Virus record (IMG/VR): IMGVR_UViG_3300020054_000866
Location: 45,823-109,822 of that record
DNA from: a virus
Reading direction: 5' to 3' (one strand)
DNA: 64,000 bases
The notes under the pieces are model-generated. The model did not search any database and was not told where the DNA came from. It saw only the letters and a program-made list of their open reading frames with translations. Positions 317 through 15,015 of the stretch are shown one piece after another. The position numbers and the translations under genes are program-made. The first letter of the stretch is position 1, and every line of letters begins with the position of its first letter.

Positions 317-1318
317 ATGTTTATCGTCATCGAAGGCACTGACGCCTCGGGAAAGTCTACTCTTGTAGACGCTGTTGTCTCTGAACTCACCGGGCAGCGG
401 TCAACTGCCGGCGCGATTCAGTACCACAAGGGCGCGCCGAAAGAGTTCACTCGCAAAGGCGTACTTTCAGAGTACGTAGAAGACATTCAAGACTTCAACT
501 GGTTCTCAGCGACAGCAGTCGCTGATCGATGGCATTGGGGTGAGGTAACGTATGCTCCGATCAAGCGTCGTCATACTAACATTGACGGCTTTGGTCTACT
601 TGGCGTTGCTGGCTGGCGATGGACCGAGATGTTTCTTCGCGCTCGCGGCATTACTCAGTTTTGGCTGTATCAGCCGCTTGAGATTATTCAGCAAAGAATT
701 AGAGAACGCGGAGACGACTTTGTAGAAGAGCATGAGCTCGAGCATATTTTAAGTCTCTACTCTTATGCGTTCGACAACACCATGTCGTGCATTAAGTTGC
801 AGCCGTCAAACGGCGGATTAGATCAAGTAGCAAACCTGGCGCGTGACGTCATCAGCTACGCTAAGACATTGCAATCTGAAGTTCAGCATCTAGAAAGATT
901 TACTTGGTACATCGGACCTCCAAAGCCAAAGGCGCTTCTCGTCGGTGACGAAAGAAACGACGAGACTGACACGATGTTGCCTTTCAAGCCTTCCGGTGCA
1001 AATTCAGCAGACTATTTGTTGAACGCCCTACCGTGCGAAACCTGGCGCGACTACGGAATCATAAATTCTGCCGATGTCTATGGAGAAGACATCATACGAC
1101 TATATGAAGCTCTTAATCGGCCAAAAGTTATAGCCCTTGGTCGCATGGCAGAAAAGCGTCTTCGTCAATGCTCACTCTACGAAAGTCTATACACAGTTCT
1201 TCCGCATCCTCAACATGTTAGACGATTTCACTACTCTGATCAAACAGAGTATGGTCGCGCAATTGATAGCTTCGCAAACGGAAACACACAGGAGTATGCG
1301 TCATGGGTTCTTCGCTGA
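317..1318 (+). CDS. Thymidylate/dNMP kinase-like protein fused to a C-terminal uracil-DNA-glycosylase-like domain
   Basis: P-loop IEGTDASGKST and DRW motif of TMP kinases; C-terminal ALLVGDE...LPF...VIALGRMA...LPHPQ pattern of the UDG superfamily; SD ggaggg. Confidence 0.8.
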   Translation: MFIVIEGTDASGKSTLVDAVVSELTGQRSTAGAIQYHKGAPKEFTRKGVLSEYVEDIQDFNWFSATAVADRWHWGEVTYAPIKRRHTNIDGFGLLGVAGWRWTEMFLRARGITQFWLYQPLEIIQQRIRERGDDFVEEHELEHILSLYSYAFDNTMSCIKLQPSNGGLDQVANLARDVISYAKTLQSEVQHLERFTWYIGPPKPKALLVGDERNDETDTMLPFKPSGANSADYLLNALPCETWRDYGIINSADVYGEDIIRLYEALNRPKVIALGRMAEKRLRQCSLYESLYTVLPHPQHVRRFHYSDQTEYGRAIDSFANGNTQEYASWVLR

Positions 1319-2175
1319 CAGCAATTCACATCGAAGACGGAGTAAACGGCTACGTTGATCTTGTTCATCACGTGCTTGAGCACGGCCGCGAGGTGTCCCC
1401 ACGCGGTGTGAAGACAAGAGAAATTGAAGACGCAACTGTATTCATAGACAACGTGTACGACGCAATGCCGATGGGCGTTGGTCGAGGTGTCGTCCCGGGC
1501 ATTGGCGCCGTTGAGGCGTGCCAACTCGTCGCCGGTAGGAGCACGCCACGGACAGTGATTGCTATAGGTCCGCAGTTTACGAATTACGCTGAGAACAACG
1601 GAGAATTTCACGGAGCGTACGGTCTACGTACAAATGGCCAGTACGCTCACGTTGTAGACAAAATCAAGAGTGACCCAGACACGCGGCAAGCAGTCGTGAC
1701 GATCTGGAACCCTGAGTTTGACAACATGCCACAGAAGCGTGACTACCCATGCACAGTTCTTCATCAGTTTAGAGTTCGTGACGGCAAACTAAATATGAGT
1801 GTCTACATGCGCTCAAACGACGTGTGGCTTGGTGCAGCGTACGACTTTTTCCAGTTCACGCGGGTGCAGTTAGCGATCTGCTCGATACTTGGAATAGAGC
1901 CAGGCACGTATGCGCATCACGTTGGGTCGCTTCACATCTACGAGTCAAATATAGATGCGGTGACTAAGTTGCGTAAGACGAGCGCCCCTGTCGACCCAAT
2001 TCCGTATTTTGCTGGCAACTCGTGGGCAGACGTCGCACTATCTGCGCAGAACTGTCTTCTCGCCGTTGACCCCGAAGCTTTGCACGTACCGGAGCTAAAC
2101 GATACAGAGCTCTGGTACGTTAACGCAATGCGCTCCGCTATCGAGAGCAACGAGGCCAAACTCGGAAATGCCTAG
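1303..2175 (+). CDS. Thymidylate synthase family enzyme, probably dCMP hydroxymethylase-like
   Basis: DTRQAV, catalytic PC (YPCT), MRSNDVWLGAAYD, HHVGSLHIY; Asp at the position of ThyA Asn177. Confidence 0.85.
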   Translation: MGSSLTAIHIEDGVNGYVDLVHHVLEHGREVSPRGVKTREIEDATVFIDNVYDAMPMGVGRGVVPGIGAVEACQLVAGRSTPRTVIAIGPQFTNYAENNGEFHGAYGLRTNGQYAHVVDKIKSDPDTRQAVVTIWNPEFDNMPQKRDYPCTVLHQFRVRDGKLNMSVYMRSNDVWLGAAYDFFQFTRVQLAICSILGIEPGTYAHHVGSLHIYESNIDAVTKLRKTSAPVDPIPYFAGNSWADVALSAQNCLLAVDPEALHVPELNDTELWYVNAMRSAIESNEAKLGNA

Positions 2176-2380
2176 TGATGAAAACGAAGAAGCTTTTGAG
2201 TATGCGTCTCCGATGCATGCCGCAGCGATTGGCATGCACGAGATGTACATCACGCTGAAGTCTGCCGGGTTTTCAAGAACTGAAGCTCTCGAGTTGATAG
2301 CAAGAATGCTTTCATACGGAGTCACAGAGACTCTAATAATTGAGAGCGAGCTTGGTGACGATGACGACGACGACGACTAA
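2168..2380 (+). CDS. Small conserved actinophage-type protein (HEMY...AGFS.TEAL)
   Basis: Overlaps flanking genes; acidic tail. Confidence 0.7.
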   Translation: MPSDENEEAFEYASPMHAAAIGMHEMYITLKSAGFSRTEALELIARMLSYGVTETLIIESELGDDDDDDD

Positions 2381-2849
2381 CGCGCGGCCATCGTGGCAGT
2401 CGACATGGCTCACCGTTGCGACTGTTATTTCGCTGCGCTCACGGTGCTCAAGAGCGCAGATGGGCGCAGTTGTAGTGTCAAAAGACCAGCGTGTCTGCGC
2501 CACCGGCTATAACGGGCCGTCGGCGTCGTGGCCTGAAAGCGGCGACTGTATCGACTGGTGCCCAAGAGCGCGCGGCGAGTCACCACTAGACAACATCTAT
2601 GACCAGTGCCCGTCAATTCACGCTGAAGCAAACGCGCTGCTGTACGTAGACAGATCAAGCGTTGAAGGCGGAACAATATACATCACAAGTCCGCCGTGTA
2701 TGCAGTGCGCAAAGCTAATTACAAATTCCGGGTTGTTGCACGTCGTATGTTATATTGGCGAGCACGACATGCACCGCAATCCGTTGGATGTCGTCGAGTA
2801 CATTAAAAAGTGTGGAATAAGCGTTACGCTTGTCGCGCACTCGGAGTGA
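2361..2849 (+). CDS. dCMP deaminase
   Basis: RSRC..AQMGAV, TGYNG, HAEANA, PCMQC zinc motifs; ATG at 2361 preferred. Confidence 0.9.
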   Translation: MTTTTTNARPSWQSTWLTVATVISLRSRCSRAQMGAVVVSKDQRVCATGYNGPSASWPESGDCIDWCPRARGESPLDNIYDQCPSIHAEANALLYVDRSSVEGGTIYITSPPCMQCAKLITNSGLLHVVCYIGEHDMHRNPLDVVEYIKKCGISVTLVAHSE

Positions 2850-2855
2850 CGTATA

Positions 2856-4673
2856 GTGGCTGATCTTTCTCAAGTACAACTTCACCTTGTCAACAGCGTA
2901 GAGTCTGCGAATGACTTTCTTTCGTGGCTTAGCGAACGACGGCCACACAACGCCATCGCGATCGACACGGAGACGGGCGAGATACCTGGAAACCCGAGGC
3001 AGCATGCGCTGTCACCGTGGCACGGACGTCTTCGGCTAGTTCAGGTCGGTGATGGCATGCAGGGCTGGTCAATACCGTGGGACGAATGGTCGGGAGTGTT
3101 CTACCAGGCGATGGAGCGCTTTGACGGTCCGATCGTCTGCCACAACATCGCGTTCGAGGCACGCTGGTTTGAGACTCAGTCACGCTGGAAAATGCCATGG
3201 CATCGCGCGCATGACACGATGATTATGGCTCACATTGTCGACCCGCTTGGTTCAGGCGCACTGAAGCGTCTTGCCGCGCTGCACGTCGACGCGCGTGCAG
3301 TTGCATTACAAGACACTCTTGATCAAGAGCTATCAGCCAACGGTTGGACCTGGGGAACTGTTCCCACAAACTTTGAGCCGTACTGGTCGTATGGCGCGCT
3401 CGACTGCGTTCTTACAATGCGTCTCTGGGAAATGTTCTACGAAAAGTGCGGACCTAACGGCGCGTACCACAAACCGTATGAGCTCGAGATGGCGACTCGT
3501 AAGATCGTCACGAGAATGGAGATCAACGGCGCTCGAGTTGATCTTGACTACTCGCAGAGAAAGTACAACGAGCTTAGCTCATACACCGAGTCTGTAAAGA
3601 ACTGGGCTAAGAATACGTACAACGGAACTTCTATAACGAGCAACATACAACTTGTTCGGCTGTTTGAGAGTCTTGGCGCTGAGATCACTGAGTTTACTCC
3701 GACCGGTCAGAAGTCTTGCACAAAGGATCAATTGAGGCTGCTAGCACAGAGCCCGATAGCGGAGGTCGCTAATCTCGCGGACACTGTTCTCAAGCAGCGT
3801 AAGGCCGACAAACTTGCTGGAACGTACTTTCTAAACTTTCTCACTGAGTCAATTGACGGCATTGTTCACCCGTCTGTGAAGACTCTTGGCGCTCGAACGA
3901 GCAGAATGTCGATCACAAATCCGGCGCTACAGACATTGCCGAAAGGCGATGACGTTGTTCGCCGAGCGTTCATCCCAAAAGACGATGACCACGTGATTAT
4001 CACTTCTGACCTCGACCAGGTTGAGTTCAGAATGTTCGCGTCTCTATCTAAAGATCCAAATCTAATTACGCTGTTCAACAGGGCGGACGCAACTGGCTCT
4101 GACCCGTTCACGGAGATTGGCAGAGAGATCTACAACGATCCGACGATGCAGAAGTCCGATAAGCGCCGCGCGCTGATTAAAGGCACGGTGTACGGAAGAC
4201 TCTATGGCGCCGGTGTCGCGAAGCAAGCCGTAACTGCCGGCGTTCCTGAGCCACAGATGCGACAAGTTTCTGATGCATTTGATCGCAGATTTCCGGGCAT
4301 GTCGTACTTTCAAAAGCAGATCGAGGACGCCGGCATGCGAAGGTTGCAGAGCGAGGGCCAAGGCTACGTATATACGTGGACAGGAAGAAGACTGCCGTGC
4401 GACGAAGACAGAGTTTACACGCTTGTGAACTACCTCATTCAGGGTGGAGCGGCAGAGGTCTTCAAAGCAAATCTTGTCAAACTCGATCAAGCCGATTTGA
4501 CTGAACTTCTCATCGTCCCGGTTCACGACGAAATAGTTCTACAGGCGCCACGAAAAGACGCAGACGAGATCAAGCAGATAGTGAAGCAATGCATGACCAC
4601 GTCTGACGGCTGGGATGTGCCACTGACCGCTGACGTAGACGGCCCGCTAGAGACGTGGGGCGACAAGTACTAG
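2856..4673 (+). CDS. polA: DNA polymerase family A with 3'-5' exonuclease domain
   Basis: Exo I DTET, Exo II HN..FE, Exo III YGALD; motif A DLDQVEFR, motif B K...YGRLYG, motif C VHDE. Confidence 0.95.
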   Translation: MADLSQVQLHLVNSVESANDFLSWLSERRPHNAIAIDTETGEIPGNPRQHALSPWHGRLRLVQVGDGMQGWSIPWDEWSGVFYQAMERFDGPIVCHNIAFEARWFETQSRWKMPWHRAHDTMIMAHIVDPLGSGALKRLAALHVDARAVALQDTLDQELSANGWTWGTVPTNFEPYWSYGALDCVLTMRLWEMFYEKCGPNGAYHKPYELEMATRKIVTRMEINGARVDLDYSQRKYNELSSYTESVKNWAKNTYNGTSITSNIQLVRLFESLGAEITEFTPTGQKSCTKDQLRLLAQSPIAEVANLADTVLKQRKADKLAGTYFLNFLTESIDGIVHPSVKTLGARTSRMSITNPALQTLPKGDDVVRRAFIPKDDDHVIITSDLDQVEFRMFASLSKDPNLITLFNRADATGSDPFTEIGREIYNDPTMQKSDKRRALIKGTVYGRLYGAGVAKQAVTAGVPEPQMRQVSDAFDRRFPGMSYFQKQIEDAGMRRLQSEGQGYVYTWTGRRLPCDEDRVYTLVNYLIQGGAAEVFKANLVKLDQADLTELLIVPVHDEIVLQAPRKDADEIKQIVKQCMTTSDGWDVPLTADVDGPLETWGDKY

Positions 4674-4990
4674 TGAATAGGTACATGGAAAAAGCGATAG
4701 AGCTCGCTCACAGCAGCAAGTGCAGGCACAAGCACGGGTGCGTTGTAGTCAAAAACGGAAAGATCATTTCAAAAGCCACAAACAAAAAAGTCGGAGACCC
4801 GTCCGTGGAGTTTCGTCTCGCGCTTCACGCGGAGTTTGCGGCTGTTGTAGCGGCAGGAACGCACGCCGCGGGTTCAACAGTCTATGTAGCCAGAGTCCAA
4901 GCAGACGGCTCGACTGCGCTGTCTAAGCCTTGTAAGAAGTGTGAAAATATGATGAAAAGATCTGGAGTATCTAAGGTAGTGTGGACATGA
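4673..4990 (+). CDS. Small zinc-dependent cytidine/nucleotide deaminase-like protein
   Basis: KHGCVVV, HAE, SKPCKKC; GTG start overlapping polA stop. Confidence 0.8.
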   Translation: MNRYMEKAIELAHSSKCRHKHGCVVVKNGKIISKATNKKVGDPSVEFRLALHAEFAAVVAAGTHAAGSTVYVARVQADGSTALSKPCKKCENMMKRSGVSKVVWT

Positions 4991-10950: not shown

Positions 10951-11972
10951 TGAAAAACATCGCGGTGACTGGGATGACAGCATCTCAGTACTCAAGATCG
11001 CGCAATTCATCGTCACTAAGCTTTGTCGCCTGTCTAAGCGACGCTGCTACCATGTATGGAGACGACGTCCGTGTTTCGTGGATAAAGCCGTCTGTCTCTC
11101 ACGCGCAAAGCGACTTTGAAGAATACGATGCGATACTTGTCGGTCTTTCTCCTCTTCTAAGTCTTGCTTCTCACTGCGCGTACGGCGTTCTTAATGTCGT
11201 CGGCATGCTAAAGGGCGATCAACGACTGCACTTCTATATTGACGCTCCTGACCCGGCAAAGATACGTCAAAGTCTGAGCGCGATTGTAAAGACGCCAGAG
11301 TCGTTGAAAAAGCCGATCTATAAGAATAGAAACGAGTACTCTAAAGTTTCTGGCTCAAGTGAGATTGTAGACAGGCTCGCTGAGTCTGCTGAGTATCTGT
11401 ATTCAGACAAAAACTACAGAGTGCTGTACCCAGCGTTCTCGTTCACAGACGACGTTCACGTATCAAGAAAGTTGTTCGGGGAGGACTCGCTGAGAATGGT
11501 TCCGTTCAACTTCGATGCTCTATACACGAGGCAGGAAGTTGACGCAGTAATTTCAGCGGAGAAAAGCAAGCTATGGCTTGTAGAAAATCACAAGACGCGC
11601 TGGTTTGAGAGAATGAAAAATCTTCTTTCATATGACTGGGAACCGGTCAAAATTAAAAGAATGCAGCCGGACACCGTGTCACTAGACAGAATTTGCAGAT
11701 CCACGGGAACAATCATATGCCCGCAAAACGACTCAATTACGTGGTGGACGTACAGATTAGTGCAATCTTTAGCAGCTCTAGTCCCGGTTTGTACAGAATG
11801 GCGAGATACAATCTCTATCGGGCAGTCATGGTCTGCCATACCGCAGGCCGTCGAGTCGATGAGCATAGCGGAGAGATACTCTCTAGCATTAGAACAACTG
11901 GAGCAATACTCTCTATCTATTAGAGACGCAGAGACAGAGACATCTAGACTATTTAAGGAGCTTTCACTCTAA
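10947..11972 (+). CDS. Putative glycosyltransferase-like protein, paralogue 2
   Basis: Aligns with upstream gene (IAVTGMTASQ/ILMTGFTALQ; YDAILVGLSPLLSL/YDVAWVNLAPLNSL; WWTYRL/WWRSRF). Confidence 0.6.
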   Translation: MMKNIAVTGMTASQYSRSRNSSSLSFVACLSDAATMYGDDVRVSWIKPSVSHAQSDFEEYDAILVGLSPLLSLASHCAYGVLNVVGMLKGDQRLHFYIDAPDPAKIRQSLSAIVKTPESLKKPIYKNRNEYSKVSGSSEIVDRLAESAEYLYSDKNYRVLYPAFSFTDDVHVSRKLFGEDSLRMVPFNFDALYTRQEVDAVISAEKSKLWLVENHKTRWFERMKNLLSYDWEPVKIKRMQPDTVSLDRICRSTGTIICPQNDSITWWTYRLVQSLAALVPVCTEWRDTISIGQSWSAIPQAVESMSIAERYSLALEQLEQYSLSIRDAETETSRLFKELSL

Positions 11973-12445
11973 TGAACATTCTATTTAATCAGTGGCTTGA
12001 AAAGACAAAGAAGCTTCAATCAGAAGTCTACGGTGTAGATTACTCCGTGTTTCATAGCGACAGCCCAGAAGATCTTCGAGCGCTTATCGAGTACATCCGC
12101 TGGAACATGCTTGCTATTGATGACGAGCTCTCGGAGGTTCGCAAGGCGATTTCTTGGAAGCCTTGGCAGCACGACGAGCCGTACGCTGATCGCCGCGAGA
12201 TTCTCAAGGAATGCGTAGACGTTCTTCATTTTGTCGCTAACATTCTCTGCGCCGCTGGTGCACTTGATGAAGATCTTGATTCTGAGTACATCGCAAAGAT
12301 GCAAATCAACGCGAATAGACAGAAGGCCGGGTACAGAGTTCTTGATGACGGCATGAAGTGCAAACTGTGCGCGCGTGCCTTAGACGACTACGACACCTCC
12401 TCGTGTAAGGAAGACGGGTGCCCGCAGCGTCATGGAGTCGTCTGA
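11972..12445 (+). CDS. All-alpha dNTP pyrophosphatase (dimeric dUTPase / T4 gp56 dCTPase-like)
   Basis: DELSE...SWKPW...KECVDVLHF...AK..IN..RQ..GY; Cys-rich C-terminus. Confidence 0.85.
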   Translation: MNILFNQWLEKTKKLQSEVYGVDYSVFHSDSPEDLRALIEYIRWNMLAIDDELSEVRKAISWKPWQHDEPYADRREILKECVDVLHFVANILCAAGALDEDLDSEYIAKMQINANRQKAGYRVLDDGMKCKLCARALDDYDTSSCKEDGCPQRHGVV

Positions 12446-12873: not shown

Positions 12874-13182
12874 ATGACAAAAAAGATTGAAACCACGAGC
12901 GAGTCTCCAAGAGAGAAGATGCTTTCGGAGGCAGCAAAAATTATCTCTGGAGAGCGTGATCTTCAGTACGGCGGACCGGAAGACAATTTCCAAAGAATCG
13001 CGTCGCTATGGTCAGTCATTTTTGACAGAGACTTCAGCAAAGAAGATGTCGCAATGGCAATGATCGCAGTAAAACTCGCGCGATTTTCTTCCAACTACGG
13101 ATTTCAACCAGACACCTGGACGGACATCGCGGGGTACGCGGCGTGCGGTTACGAGGTCGGGTTGATCGACTCAGGAGAGTGA
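12874..13182 (+). CDS. DUF6378-like phage protein
   Basis: GER..QYG.PEDNF.RIA.LWS...VKLAR...DTWTDIAGYA. Confidence 0.8.
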   Translation: MTKKIETTSESPREKMLSEAAKIISGERDLQYGGPEDNFQRIASLWSVIFDRDFSKEDVAMAMIAVKLARFSSNYGFQPDTWTDIAGYAACGYEVGLIDSGE

Positions 13183-13183
13183 C

Positions 13184-14431
13184 ATGAGCACGAAAAAGTT
13201 TATCGACTGCAACGGCCTCGCTGGCTTCATGAGCCTTGGCTTTGTAAACTCCGGAATGGAGATGCTGGCAAGGACTGGGACGTTGAACTTCGGTAATCCA
13301 GTTGCAGAAGTGAATAGACATCATCTCGGCAACTCGTGGAACTCGTCATTCTCCGATGATCCGAGCGACTGGCCTGATATGGAAGCAGACATTGTTCTCG
13401 GCTGCCCGCCGTGCTCTGGATGGTCTCTATGGTCTGGCCCGGCAAACCGCGGGCCTGATGCTAAGGCTCACGAGCATACTCGCGCGTTCATGAGATACGC
13501 AGCTCGCATCAAGCCGAAGATGATTGTCTTTGAATGTGTGCAGCAAGCGTACACTCAAGGACGACCAATGATGAATCAGTATCGTCAAATGGTAGAGGAT
13601 CTCTCAGGCAAGCAGTACGATCTCTATCACGTCAAGCACAACAATCTCCAGGTCGGCGGATTCTCATATCGCATGCGGTACTTCTGGGTTGCTGTTGAAA
13701 AAGGCATGCCGTTTGGCGCTCACGCTGAGACGCCTAGCGAGATGCCTAGAATGATAGACGTAATTGGTGACCTCGAGCACTGCGAGATCACGTGGGACCG
13801 ACAGGCGTACTCCAACGACGGGTCGAAGTACGTTGCCGATCTCAGAAACCAAGACGGTACTGTTGACGGTCACATGAACAAGACAAATCTCGAGTCGCAG
13901 AGAATTCAAGAAATCTTTGACATCATCGGCAACGATGGTTGGAAGCCGATGAAGCAGATGAACGAGGCTCTTAAGCTCGCCGTCGAGATGAACGGAGGGT
14001 ACTTTCCACAGAGCTGGAGCAACAAAGAAGACAAGATTCGCGCCAATGACTTCTACATGGGGTTCTCACTCCCAGCAAGATGGGACGCTGAATCTTTCTG
14101 CCACGTGCTCACCGGTAGCGCGCTCGATCACGTCGTGCACCCAACGCAGCCGAGAAGAATCACTCACAGGGAGGCGGCAAGAATTCAAGGCCTTCCCGAT
14201 GATTGGGAAATCGTCGCCGCGAAGGACTACACCCCGCAGAGCGCGACTTGGGGCAAGGCAGTGGCGGTGCAGGCGGCTAACTGGATCGGAGAGGCCTGCT
14301 CAGCGGCCTTAGACGGCCAGCCAAACGGTCCACAGGGTGAATTGATTGGTGATCGCGAATACCTTCTCGACACTGACAAGGGCTTTAGTAGAAACTTCGT
14401 CAAGAAGAACTTCTACCAGCGAGAAGACTAA
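13184..14431 (+). CDS. C5-cytosine DNA methyltransferase homologue with remodelled cofactor site
   Basis: Catalytic GCPPCSGWS, FECV (ENV variant), YRMRY, HPTQPRRIT.REAARIQG.PDDW; motif I DCNGLAGF and motif X WGKAV deviate from consensus. Confidence 0.85.
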   Translation: MSTKKFIDCNGLAGFMSLGFVNSGMEMLARTGTLNFGNPVAEVNRHHLGNSWNSSFSDDPSDWPDMEADIVLGCPPCSGWSLWSGPANRGPDAKAHEHTRAFMRYAARIKPKMIVFECVQQAYTQGRPMMNQYRQMVEDLSGKQYDLYHVKHNNLQVGGFSYRMRYFWVAVEKGMPFGAHAETPSEMPRMIDVIGDLEHCEITWDRQAYSNDGSKYVADLRNQDGTVDGHMNKTNLESQRIQEIFDIIGNDGWKPMKQMNEALKLAVEMNGGYFPQSWSNKEDKIRANDFYMGFSLPARWDAESFCHVLTGSALDHVVHPTQPRRITHREAARIQGLPDDWEIVAAKDYTPQSATWGKAVAVQAANWIGEACSAALDGQPNGPQGELIGDREYLLDTDKGFSRNFVKKNFYQRED

Positions 14432-14502: not shown

Positions 14503-15015
14503 ATGCAATCATTTCTAGTCTCGACTGACTCGTTTGAGACAACAGCAAAAGTACTAGACAACAAGCGCCTGCATAAGCAGACTCTTGAGGCATGGCAGTG
14601 CTTGCTAACAATCTCTGGCCTAGACCCAGAGGGCAACGACCGAAACCCTAAGGGCTGGGTGAATCACCCAGTTGTAAAAATGTGGCGCGGCTACGAGACA
14701 GTGTTTGTCTCATACATCTCGGCTACGTACTTCGAGTGGCGATCGCGCGGGTACAAATCAACTCTTCTTGAGAAAACGTACAGAACGTACGATCTAGCAG
14801 TCTCACTAGGCCGTGTCTCTTCCGAGTATCGACTCCCACCATGGATGCAAGACTCTACGTACTTTAGCAGCCTATGTTCTACTCATCGGACCGCACTCCT
14901 GTGCAAGAACTACGAGTGGTACCATCAGTTCGGCTGGCCAGAGGACTCGGGGACTGCACCAGAGACGTACGAGTACTTGTGGCCTCATCAAGACGGCTAC
15001 GTCATCGCCGGCTAA
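14503..15015 (+). CDS. Pyrimidine-dimer DNA glycosylase family (MSMEG_6728 / T4 endonuclease V-like)
   Basis: MQSFL...LD.KRL.KQ.LEA.Q...GW.NHP..KMWRGYE...HR.ALL.K...YLWP. Confidence 0.85.
   Translation: MQSFLVSTDSFETTAKVLDNKRLHKQTLEAWQCLLTISGLDPEGNDRNPKGWVNHPVVKMWRGYETVFVSYISATYFEWRSRGYKSTLLEKTYRTYDLAVSLGRVSSEYRLPPWMQDSTYFSSLCSTHRTALLCKNYEWYHQFGWPEDSGTAPETYEYLWPHQDGYVIAG

Follow-up and report, generated by a model that had tools for sequence, protein, structure and literature searches.

What does a phage do with a DNA cytosine C5-methyltransferase fold in which the asparagine flanking the transferred methyl group has become a lysine? The question is raised by an open reading frame (ORF) at positions 13184-14431 of the DNA analysed here (the window), which is the 3'-terminal 64 kb of a viral contig in IMG/VR (IMGVR_UViG_3300020054_000866, 109.8 kb) with an estimated completeness of 82%. 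The nearest named relative of the contig is DSL-LC01, a metagenome-assembled freshwater Actinomycetia phage. A sequence-only reading of the ORF had described a Dcm-like protein with a degenerate site for S-adenosylmethionine (SAM), judged it probably not a methyltransferase, and proposed an anionic or non-SAM donor or the editing of 5-hydroxymethylcytosine (hmC). The view that we favour, tentatively, is that the ORF encodes a DNA-binding, base-flipping cytosine-C5 enzyme of a phage-only family, here termed the Lys-type family, and that this enzyme is a fixed part of a system which would replace deoxycytidine (dC) by a 5-hydroxymethyl-dC-type nucleotide and then decorate it.

A lysine at motif X of a cytosine C5-methyltransferase fold

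The match of the ORF to the DNA_methylase profile PF00145 starts at profile position 54, leaving the N-terminal SAM-binding part unaligned. An AlphaFold2 model computed from 49 family members (predicted local distance difference test (pLDDT) 96.4, predicted template modelling score (pTM) 0.94) superposes on DNA C5-methyltransferases, target-recognition domain included, in both VIA and Foldseek comparisons. VIA Z scores are 30.2 for DNMT1 (root-mean-square deviation (rmsd) 3.4, 354 residues aligned), 29.7 for 3G7U, 29.0 for HaeIII (rmsd 2.7, 289 aligned), 26.4 for HhaI, 24.3 for M.MpeI and 24.0 for CmoX (8YF3). On the profile match and the predicted class I catalytic and target-recognition domains, the ORF is a member of the DNA (cytosine-5) methyltransferase superfamily.

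The translation contains all of the cytosine-activating residues noted in the sequence-only reading, namely PPC, the Glu of ECV and RxR. Their conservation was assessed in a family sample from an exhaustive HMMER search, which returned 946 relatives; clustering at 50% identity gave 122 full-length representatives among the best 150. The PPC nucleophile motif, the motif VI Glu and RxR are kept in 119-122 of these 122, with Arg163 present in 119 and Arg165 in every one. Motif IV reads xPPCS across the representatives, with N, T, C or V preceding PPC, and motif VI is ESV in 114 and ECV in 5.

The position of the lysine was established by three alignments. A phmmer alignment to ZMET2 sets WGKAVAV opposite VGNAVAV, and an alignment of M.HaeIII through the family profile sets iGKgvpV opposite IGNAVPV, both of which place Lys358 on the motif X Asn; when CmoX is aligned to the family hidden Markov model (HMM), its Arg350 (VGRMV) falls on the same residue. 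The three agree and bear out the assignment. This position is Lys in 117 and Arg in 3 of the 122 representatives, and Lys in all 120 members of a second sample of close relatives (at least 62% identity). Because it is so nearly fixed at both depths, the lysine is, on these alignments, not a chance substitution.

The conclusion that the protein is probably not a methyltransferase cannot rest on this residue. The engineered enzyme M.MedI-N377K, which carries the same exchange, still methylates fully with SAM, giving >99% protection, and also uses carboxy-SAM (Cx-SAM) (PMC12015181). Since engineered Asn-to-Lys enzymes still use SAM, the lysine alone is no argument against methylation, and the case against plain methylation has to rest on the loss of the ribose-binding acid, the family-wide fixation of the lysine, and the gene context.

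A conserved, non-canonical pocket in place of the SAM site

In the HMM alignment, the adenine-stacking Phe of HaeIII motif I aligns to Asn10 of the window protein, a position occupied by Gln in the family; a one-residue shift of the alignment would retain GxAG, so that the glycine loop would be partly kept. The motif II Glu of HaeIII falls on a family-consensus Glu, where the window protein has Gly32, the last residue of strand 26-32 according to DSSP of the model. Translation and alignment therefore confirm that motif I reads NGLAGF, that the motif II acid is missing and that the cofactor site is unlike that of canonical SAM binders. Three features of SAM-type C5-methyltransferases are thus absent: the Phe of motif I FxGxGG, the motif II acid and the Gly-Asn of motif X.

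"Degenerate" is nevertheless the wrong word for this site, since the pocket residues are strictly conserved within the clade. Every one of the 114 aligned close relatives has the string DCNGLAGFM unchanged; Arg30 and Gly32 are invariant among the 120, and Thr31 is found in 118 of them. The segments RTGTLNFGN, ECV and GKAV are likewise nearly invariant in this sample. Because its residues vary so little, the pocket is, as far as conservation tells, rebuilt and under purifying selection, not eroding. Replacement of the motif II Glu has occurred in several clades, one with RTG and another with HR[AV]S; the RTG clade includes the window protein, Gordonia GMA2-like phages and Kurnik-like sequences.

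These observations bear on the simplest alternative, which we regard as unlikely: an ordinary SAM-dependent 5-methylcytosine (5mC) methyltransferase acting on unreplaced cytosines or at a specific motif, in which the lysine and the altered pocket are lineage quirks. Such an enzyme would have the canonical fold and catalytic residues seen here. Acidic residues are still present at 58/59 and 62, the expected site of motif III, AGG and the motif II Glu survive in the majority of the family, and the full activity of M.MedI-N377K with SAM shows that the lysine would be tolerated. It would leave unexplained, however, why Lys has become fixed at the Asn position of canonical enzymes (117 of 122 representatives), and why the clade of the window protein lacks both the ribose-binding acid and the motif I Phe. 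Should the enzyme prove to be a plain methylase after all, a lysine at motif X would be shown not to be diagnostic of carboxymethyl transfer.

Distribution and association with predicted hydroxymethylation genes

Among 50,697 deposited phage records, 15 contain a family member; these are from Gordonia phages, DSL-LC01 and Micrococcus phage Kurnik. Further members were located at 354 + 96 IMG/VR loci, and only two contigs of metagenome-assembled genomes (MAGs) carry the family among representative genomes of 185,579 prokaryote species. It is essentially virus-only, and it is not a restriction-modification methylase family. The GMA2 member, orf51, is annotated as a putative methylase only. One family representative is fused to an HMUDK_hel domain, and others are fused to UbiG/FkbM-type O-methyltransferases.

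Upstream in the window lies a homologue of thymidylate synthase (TS) with Asp at the position of the Asn by which TS selects dUMP, and CMP 5-hydroxymethylase is among its top PDB matches; it is probably a deoxycytidine monophosphate (dCMP) hydroxymethylase, as judged from these residues and matches. Gene co-occurrence was followed in 50 family contigs, including 24 with a completeness of 90% or more, and in the three deposited phage genomes compared, the metagenome-assembled DSL-LC01 and the cultured GMA2 and Kurnik. The TS homologue is found in 44 of the 50 contigs, in 24 of the 24 that are at least 90% complete, and in all three phage genomes. About 30 TS copies from family-carrying phages were inspected, and all of them have Asp at the position of ThyA Asn177 together with the catalytic Cys.

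Two further components point in the same direction. The GT-B fold protein of 400 residues has T4 beta-glucosyltransferase (1QKJ) as its top Foldseek match (E 1.9e-6, TM 0.48/0.53), followed by other GT-B proteins, and leads from an Atlas search agree with this assignment. Gene neighbourhoods were compared in 80 distant family loci, and in 51 of these a homologue of the MazG-like NTP pyrophosphatase immediately precedes the Lys-type gene. Across carriers, the constant set consists of TS-Asp, the MazG-like NTPase and the Lys-type enzyme, and the decoration genes vary. Going by its genes, the phage most likely builds hydroxymethyl-dCTP as T4 does and glycosylates hmC in DNA.

This context adds two objections to an ordinary 5mC methyltransferase: the family is missing from cellular genomes and from restriction-modification contexts, and it is restricted to phages that have a TS homologue of the dCMP type, in which C5 would already be occupied. 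A simple methylase appears unlikely because a fixed member of an hmC system has a positive charge at the methyl site and a rebuilt donor pocket.

Supply of carboxy-SAM

A basic residue exactly at the position of CmoX Arg350 and of M.MpeI N374K, together with the PPCS motif IV shared with CmoX, could indicate a CmoX-like transferase that takes Cx-SAM or a different anionic analogue of SAM, provided either by the host or by a phage enzyme that escaped recognition, and produces 5-carboxymethylcytosine or a related acid. We consider this quite improbable. Natural 5-carboxymethylcytosine is known from CmoX of Synechococcus phage S-B43, which has an SPPC motif and Arg at the motif X position; its donor, Cx-SAM, comes from a phage-encoded CmoA, a CmoY ligase then adds glycine, and 4,257 CmoA genes are reported across 5,615 CmoX contigs (PMC12783734). 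In contrast, CmoA (TIGR00740) was found nowhere on the 109.8-kb contig, which confirms its absence from the window and extends it to the full contig, and neither the 50 family contigs nor DSL-LC01, GMA2 and Kurnik yielded a match. As a positive control, the validated S-B43 CmoA adjoining CmoX was recovered by this search (E 2.5e-34, 115.6 bits). Ligases of the CmoY-like or Asn_synthase type were found in 0 of 51 records. Some family members carry a fused methyltransferase domain at the C terminus; these domains were considered as CmoA candidates and rejected, as they look UbiG/FkbM-type.

A host source was sought in 301 genomes from the phylum of a Coriobacteriia MAG (G051, the search centre), taken as the host phylum Actinomycetota. 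None has a CmoA match above the curated cut-off, and three reach the score of the validated phage CmoA, which leaves a narrow opening for host supply. This sample takes in unpublished genomes (G053, G269, G172, G070 and G140), on which the statement about host supply partly rests.

Other observations also speak against a CmoX-like reaction. The Cx-SAM-holding residues Glu47 and Phe25 of CmoX have no counterpart in the window protein, the model is no closer to CmoX than to HaeIII, and the neighbouring glycosyltransferases and kinases need a hydroxyl, not a carboxylate. Because CmoA and CmoY-like genes are missing from the family contigs, Cx-SAM chemistry is unsupported, and we rejected it as the leading idea. 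The Lys-type enzyme is not a CmoA-fed carboxymethyltransferase; carboxymethyl transfer would be possible only with a donor supply of unrecognised source, for which we rate the chance as low.

Proposed reaction and its alternatives

From the observed fold, residues, conservation, virus-only distribution and gene associations, we infer a substrate, a ligand and a chemistry as follows. Cys77 would attack C6 of a flipped cytosine-type base and Glu117 would protonate N3, as in any C5-methyltransferase. The base would bear, or gain, an oxygenated or anionic C5 substituent instead of a methyl group, and Lys358, in place of the Asn, would lie against this side chain as a general acid or counter-charge. 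The rebuilt pocket (NGLAGF, RTG) would bind a ligand other than ordinary SAM. The likeliest substrate would be hmC or a derivatised hmC in phage DNA, which could be activated through an exocyclic methylene, as with SAM-free C5-methyltransferases in vitro and with clade 2 aGPT-Pplases on phosphorylated 5-hydroxymethyluracil (hmU). For the latter, thiolate attack at C6 with formation of an exocyclic methylene on phosphorylated hmU has been described (PMC8989533).

Of the donors and reactions put forward in the sequence-only reading, the gene context thus favours hmC editing, and the anionic Cx-SAM donor finds no support. In its more specific form, our proposal would make the Lys-type family a natural SAM-independent or non-SAM-cofactor enzyme that acts on hmC in DNA through covalent Cys-C6 catalysis and either exchanges its C5 side chain, activates it or removes it. 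We offer this form as doubtful. If it is true, the family would be the cytosine counterpart of aGPT-Pplase chemistry on hmU and would provide the first example from nature of the "atypical" reactions that have so far been seen only when methyltransferases are deprived of SAM in vitro. It would then catalyse a core step in cytosine hypermodifications of a widespread and as yet undescribed kind in actinophages.

Several observations weigh against a role in hmC modification. An AGG loop and the motif II Glu are still present in most of the wider family (79 of 122), which speaks for an adenosine-type cofactor, and engineered Asn-to-Lys enzymes retain methylation with SAM. The hmC in the DNA of these phages is itself predicted from their genes; the literature on GMA2 and DSL-LC01 holds no DNA-modification data, and we found nothing on Kurnik. 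Glycosyltransferases need no activation of hmC, which leaves the enzyme without an obvious step in a T4-like scheme. The carriers also share one replication module, and part of the co-occurrence may reflect common descent, not functional dependence.

The constancy of the core set, in which TS-Asp, the MazG-like protein and the Lys-type enzyme stay together as decoration genes change from glycosyltransferases to kinase and ADDT, would also suit a post-replicative DNA cytosine C5-hydroxymethylase, or another non-SAM one-carbon adder, that converts residual C to hmC for complete decoration. SAM-free C5-methyltransferases add formaldehyde to C5 in vitro, and the lysine could form an iminium with an aldehyde donor. 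No candidate donor is apparent, however, the need for such patching would be weak if a dCTPase is present, and we know of no natural precedent for a post-replicative C5-hydroxymethylase. We rate this alternative as improbable.

A further alternative sets phage DNA modification aside: the protein would attack or mark unmodified host DNA, for example through deamination of C without SAM and subsequent cleavage by a glycosylase, or would be a non-catalytic DNA binder. The gene directly downstream, here and in the syntenic locus of DSL-LC01, encodes a DenV-like glycosylase, and if the phage uses hmC, unmodified C would be found only in host DNA. This glycosylase neighbour is, however, limited to the clade of the window protein, being present in only 2 of the 80 distant loci, and a mere DNA binder would not be expected to conserve every catalytic residue so strictly. 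We hold either version to be very improbable.

If the Lys-type enzyme performs chemistry other than methyl transfer, it would represent a new enzymatic route to DNA hypermodification and would give a function to a constant gene of a large group of soil and freshwater actinophages. Its carriers include culturable Gordonia and Micrococcus phages, which makes direct testing possible. A natural C5-methyltransferase scaffold that takes a non-methyl group or hmC would also be of interest for the chemistry of epigenomic sequencing, a field that already employs engineered Asn-to-Lys enzymes.

Features of the locus and variation among carriers

Table 1. Features of the Lys-type enzyme and its neighbours, in window coordinates.
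Feature	Position	Strand	Basis
Lys-type C5-methyltransferase-fold protein, 415 aa	13184..14431	+	PF00145 E 8e-23; AlphaFold2 pLDDT 96.4
Motif I equivalent, NGLAGF (canonical FxGxGG)	13211..13228	+	Translation; HMM alignment to HaeIII
R30-T31-G32, Gly replacing the motif II ribose-binding acid, end of strand beta2	13271..13279	+	Alignment; DSSP
Motif IV PPC (residues 75-77), catalytic Cys77, context GCPPCSGWS	13406..13414	+	Translation
Motif VI ECV, Glu117 kept (canonical ENV; family ESV)	13532..13540	+	Translation
Motif VIII R163-x-R165 (RMR)	13670..13678	+	Translation
Motif X GKAV, Gly357-Lys358	14252..14263	+	Position of HhaI Asn304, MpeI Asn374, CmoX Arg350
Thymidylate-synthase-family enzyme, dCMP-type Asp (RSNDVWLGAAYD, 1810-1845), catalytic Cys (PCT)	1303..2175	+	PF00303 E 4e-27
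dCMP deaminase-like protein	2340..2849	+	PF00383 E 2.6e-17
Second, short cytidine/dCMP deaminase-like protein	4655..4990	+	PF00383 E 1.6e-13
GT-B fold glycosyltransferase-like protein, 400 aa	9748..10950	+	AlphaFold2 pLDDT 85.7; Foldseek
Second GT-B-like paralogue, 341 aa	10947..11972	+	Atlas structure search, lead only
MazG / dimeric-dUTPase-like all-alpha NTP pyrophosphatase	11972..12445	+	PF08761 E 2.6e-11
DUF6378 protein, directly upstream of the Lys-type enzyme	12874..13182	+	PF19905 E 1.4e-26
DenV-like (T4 endonuclease V) pyrimidine-dimer DNA glycosylase homologue, directly downstream	14503..15015	+	PF03013 E 6.7e-15

The genes of the window run in the order TS, two deaminase-like genes, PolA and SNF2, then PD-(D/E)XK, AAA_24, DUF669, two glycosyltransferase-like genes, the MazG-like gene, DUF6378, the Lys-type enzyme, the DenV-like glycosylase and WhiB. 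Upstream of the TS homologue, a 333-residue ORF (317-1318) has a weak P-loop match only. The 341-residue GT-B-like paralogue gave leads in the Atlas structure search to GT4/GT1 families (TM 0.56-0.64) and lies near an Atlas cluster in which 40% of members carry PF09198 (T4-Gluco-transf), likewise a lead only. The DUF6378 protein is mis-named "phosphofructokinase" in PHROGs, and in distant carriers its homologues lie elsewhere in the replication module.

A related order recurs in the 80 distant loci: SNF2, PD-(D/E)XK, AAA_24, DUF669, a set of variable genes, the MazG-like gene and the Lys-type enzyme. Among the products of the variable genes are an NAD-dependent epimerase, a glycosyltransferase of RGP-like type and unknown proteins of 450-510 residues. 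The commonest of them between DUF669 and MazG is a family of about 450 residues (L084:5692-7002 and homologues), which is present in 50 of the 80 loci and has no match in PHROGs or Pfam. Complete 36-kb carriers also encode GT2 proteins. The DSL-LC01 module adds a UDP-galactopyranose mutase and a 170-residue class I methyltransferase (L001:3947-5044 and L001:7431-7943), of which the window contig has no copy; the 170-residue protein, which adjoins the DSL-LC01 homologue of the Lys-type enzyme, matched no NCBIfam model.

Next to the MazG/Lys-type pair of the HR[AV]S clade lie a myo-inositol-1-phosphate synthase, a HAD phosphatase and a dual-specificity phosphatase. A homologue of the amino-acid:DNA-transferase (ADDT) is found in 7 of 7 members (best E 2.8e-8), and one of the 5-hmdU-DNA-kinase (HMUDK) in 6 of 6 (best E 4.7e-8). 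This inositol synthase-phosphatase-ADDT-kinase cassette is exemplified by L187:11629-15793 (IMG/VR 3300003321_000148) and recurs in L121, L146, L154, L157, L159 and L160. All phages that bear it have a dCMP-type TS, and the cassette may direct an inositol- or amino-acid-type cytosine hypermodification.

Comparison with known systems

The canonical C5-methyltransferases (M.HaeIII, M.HhaI, the prophage CP-933R enzyme 3G7U and DNMT1/ZMET2; PF00145) share with the Lys-type enzyme the fold with its target-recognition domain, the catalytic Cys, the motif VI Glu, motif VIII RxR and motif IX. They differ in that the Lys-type family has replaced Asn by Lys in motif X, Asn by Cys or Ser in motif VI and FPCQ by PPCS in motif IV, and has lost the motif I Phe, with further loss of the motif II acid in the clade of the window protein. 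Unlike these enzymes, the family is virus-only and lies outside restriction-modification contexts. The engineered M.MpeI N374K and M.MedI N377K carry the identical Asn-to-Lys exchange; these are laboratory constructs with canonical SAM pockets, and they need supplied Cx-SAM or E. coli CmoA.

SpCmoX of phage S-B43 (PDB 8YF3; Yang et al. 2025, PMC12783734) is likewise a phage-encoded C5-methyltransferase fold in a hypermodification pathway, with a basic residue at the motif X Asn and PPCS in motif IV. The CmoX definition uses Arg at this position, where the window protein has Lys358, and the leading residue of motif IV is not shared (SPPC in CmoX, CPPC here). CmoX has FAGGGG, Glu47, Phe25/48 and ENV where the window protein has NGLAGF, Gly32 and ECV. 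Among the residues with which CmoX binds the adenosine of Cx-SAM (Phe25, Glu47, Phe48 and Asp69), Glu47 corresponds to Gly32 and Phe25 to Asn10, so that this binding set is not present here. CmoX scores 62.9 bits against the family HMM, and its structural Z (24.0) is below those of HaeIII and DNMT1. CmoX travels with CmoA and usually with the CmoY ligase, whereas the Lys-type family travels with neither.

Clade 2 aGPT-Pplases (Lee et al. 2021, PMC8989533) offer a functional analogy only, in that they perform C6 thiolate chemistry on a 5-(phospho)hydroxymethyl pyrimidine in DNA; a further link is that some Lys-type members stand beside, or are fused to, HMUDK/ADDT-type proteins. Unlike the Lys-type enzyme, they have an unrelated helix-hairpin-helix fold and act on hmU, and no kinase (HMUDK_hel, PF18723) was found on the window contig, though the Pfam control of that search also gave no match. 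In the TET-dependent pathway from 5mC through hmC to glycosylated hmC (Burke et al. 2021), a phage TET/JBP dioxygenase adjoins a C5-methyltransferase and a glycosyltransferase; TET/JBP (PF12851) had no match on the 82%-complete contig, but the control search matched nowhere either.

The closest parallel in gene content is the hmC pathway of T4, with its gp42 dCMP hydroxymethylase, gp56 dCTPase and alpha- and beta-glucosyltransferases. At the level of genes, the likeness extends to the TS homologue with a dCMP-type Asp, the all-alpha NTPase, a deaminase, and a GT-B protein with T4 beta-glucosyltransferase as its top fold match. T4 itself has no component with a C5-methyltransferase fold, and the constant presence of such a member in a T4-like hmC gene set is the new element here.

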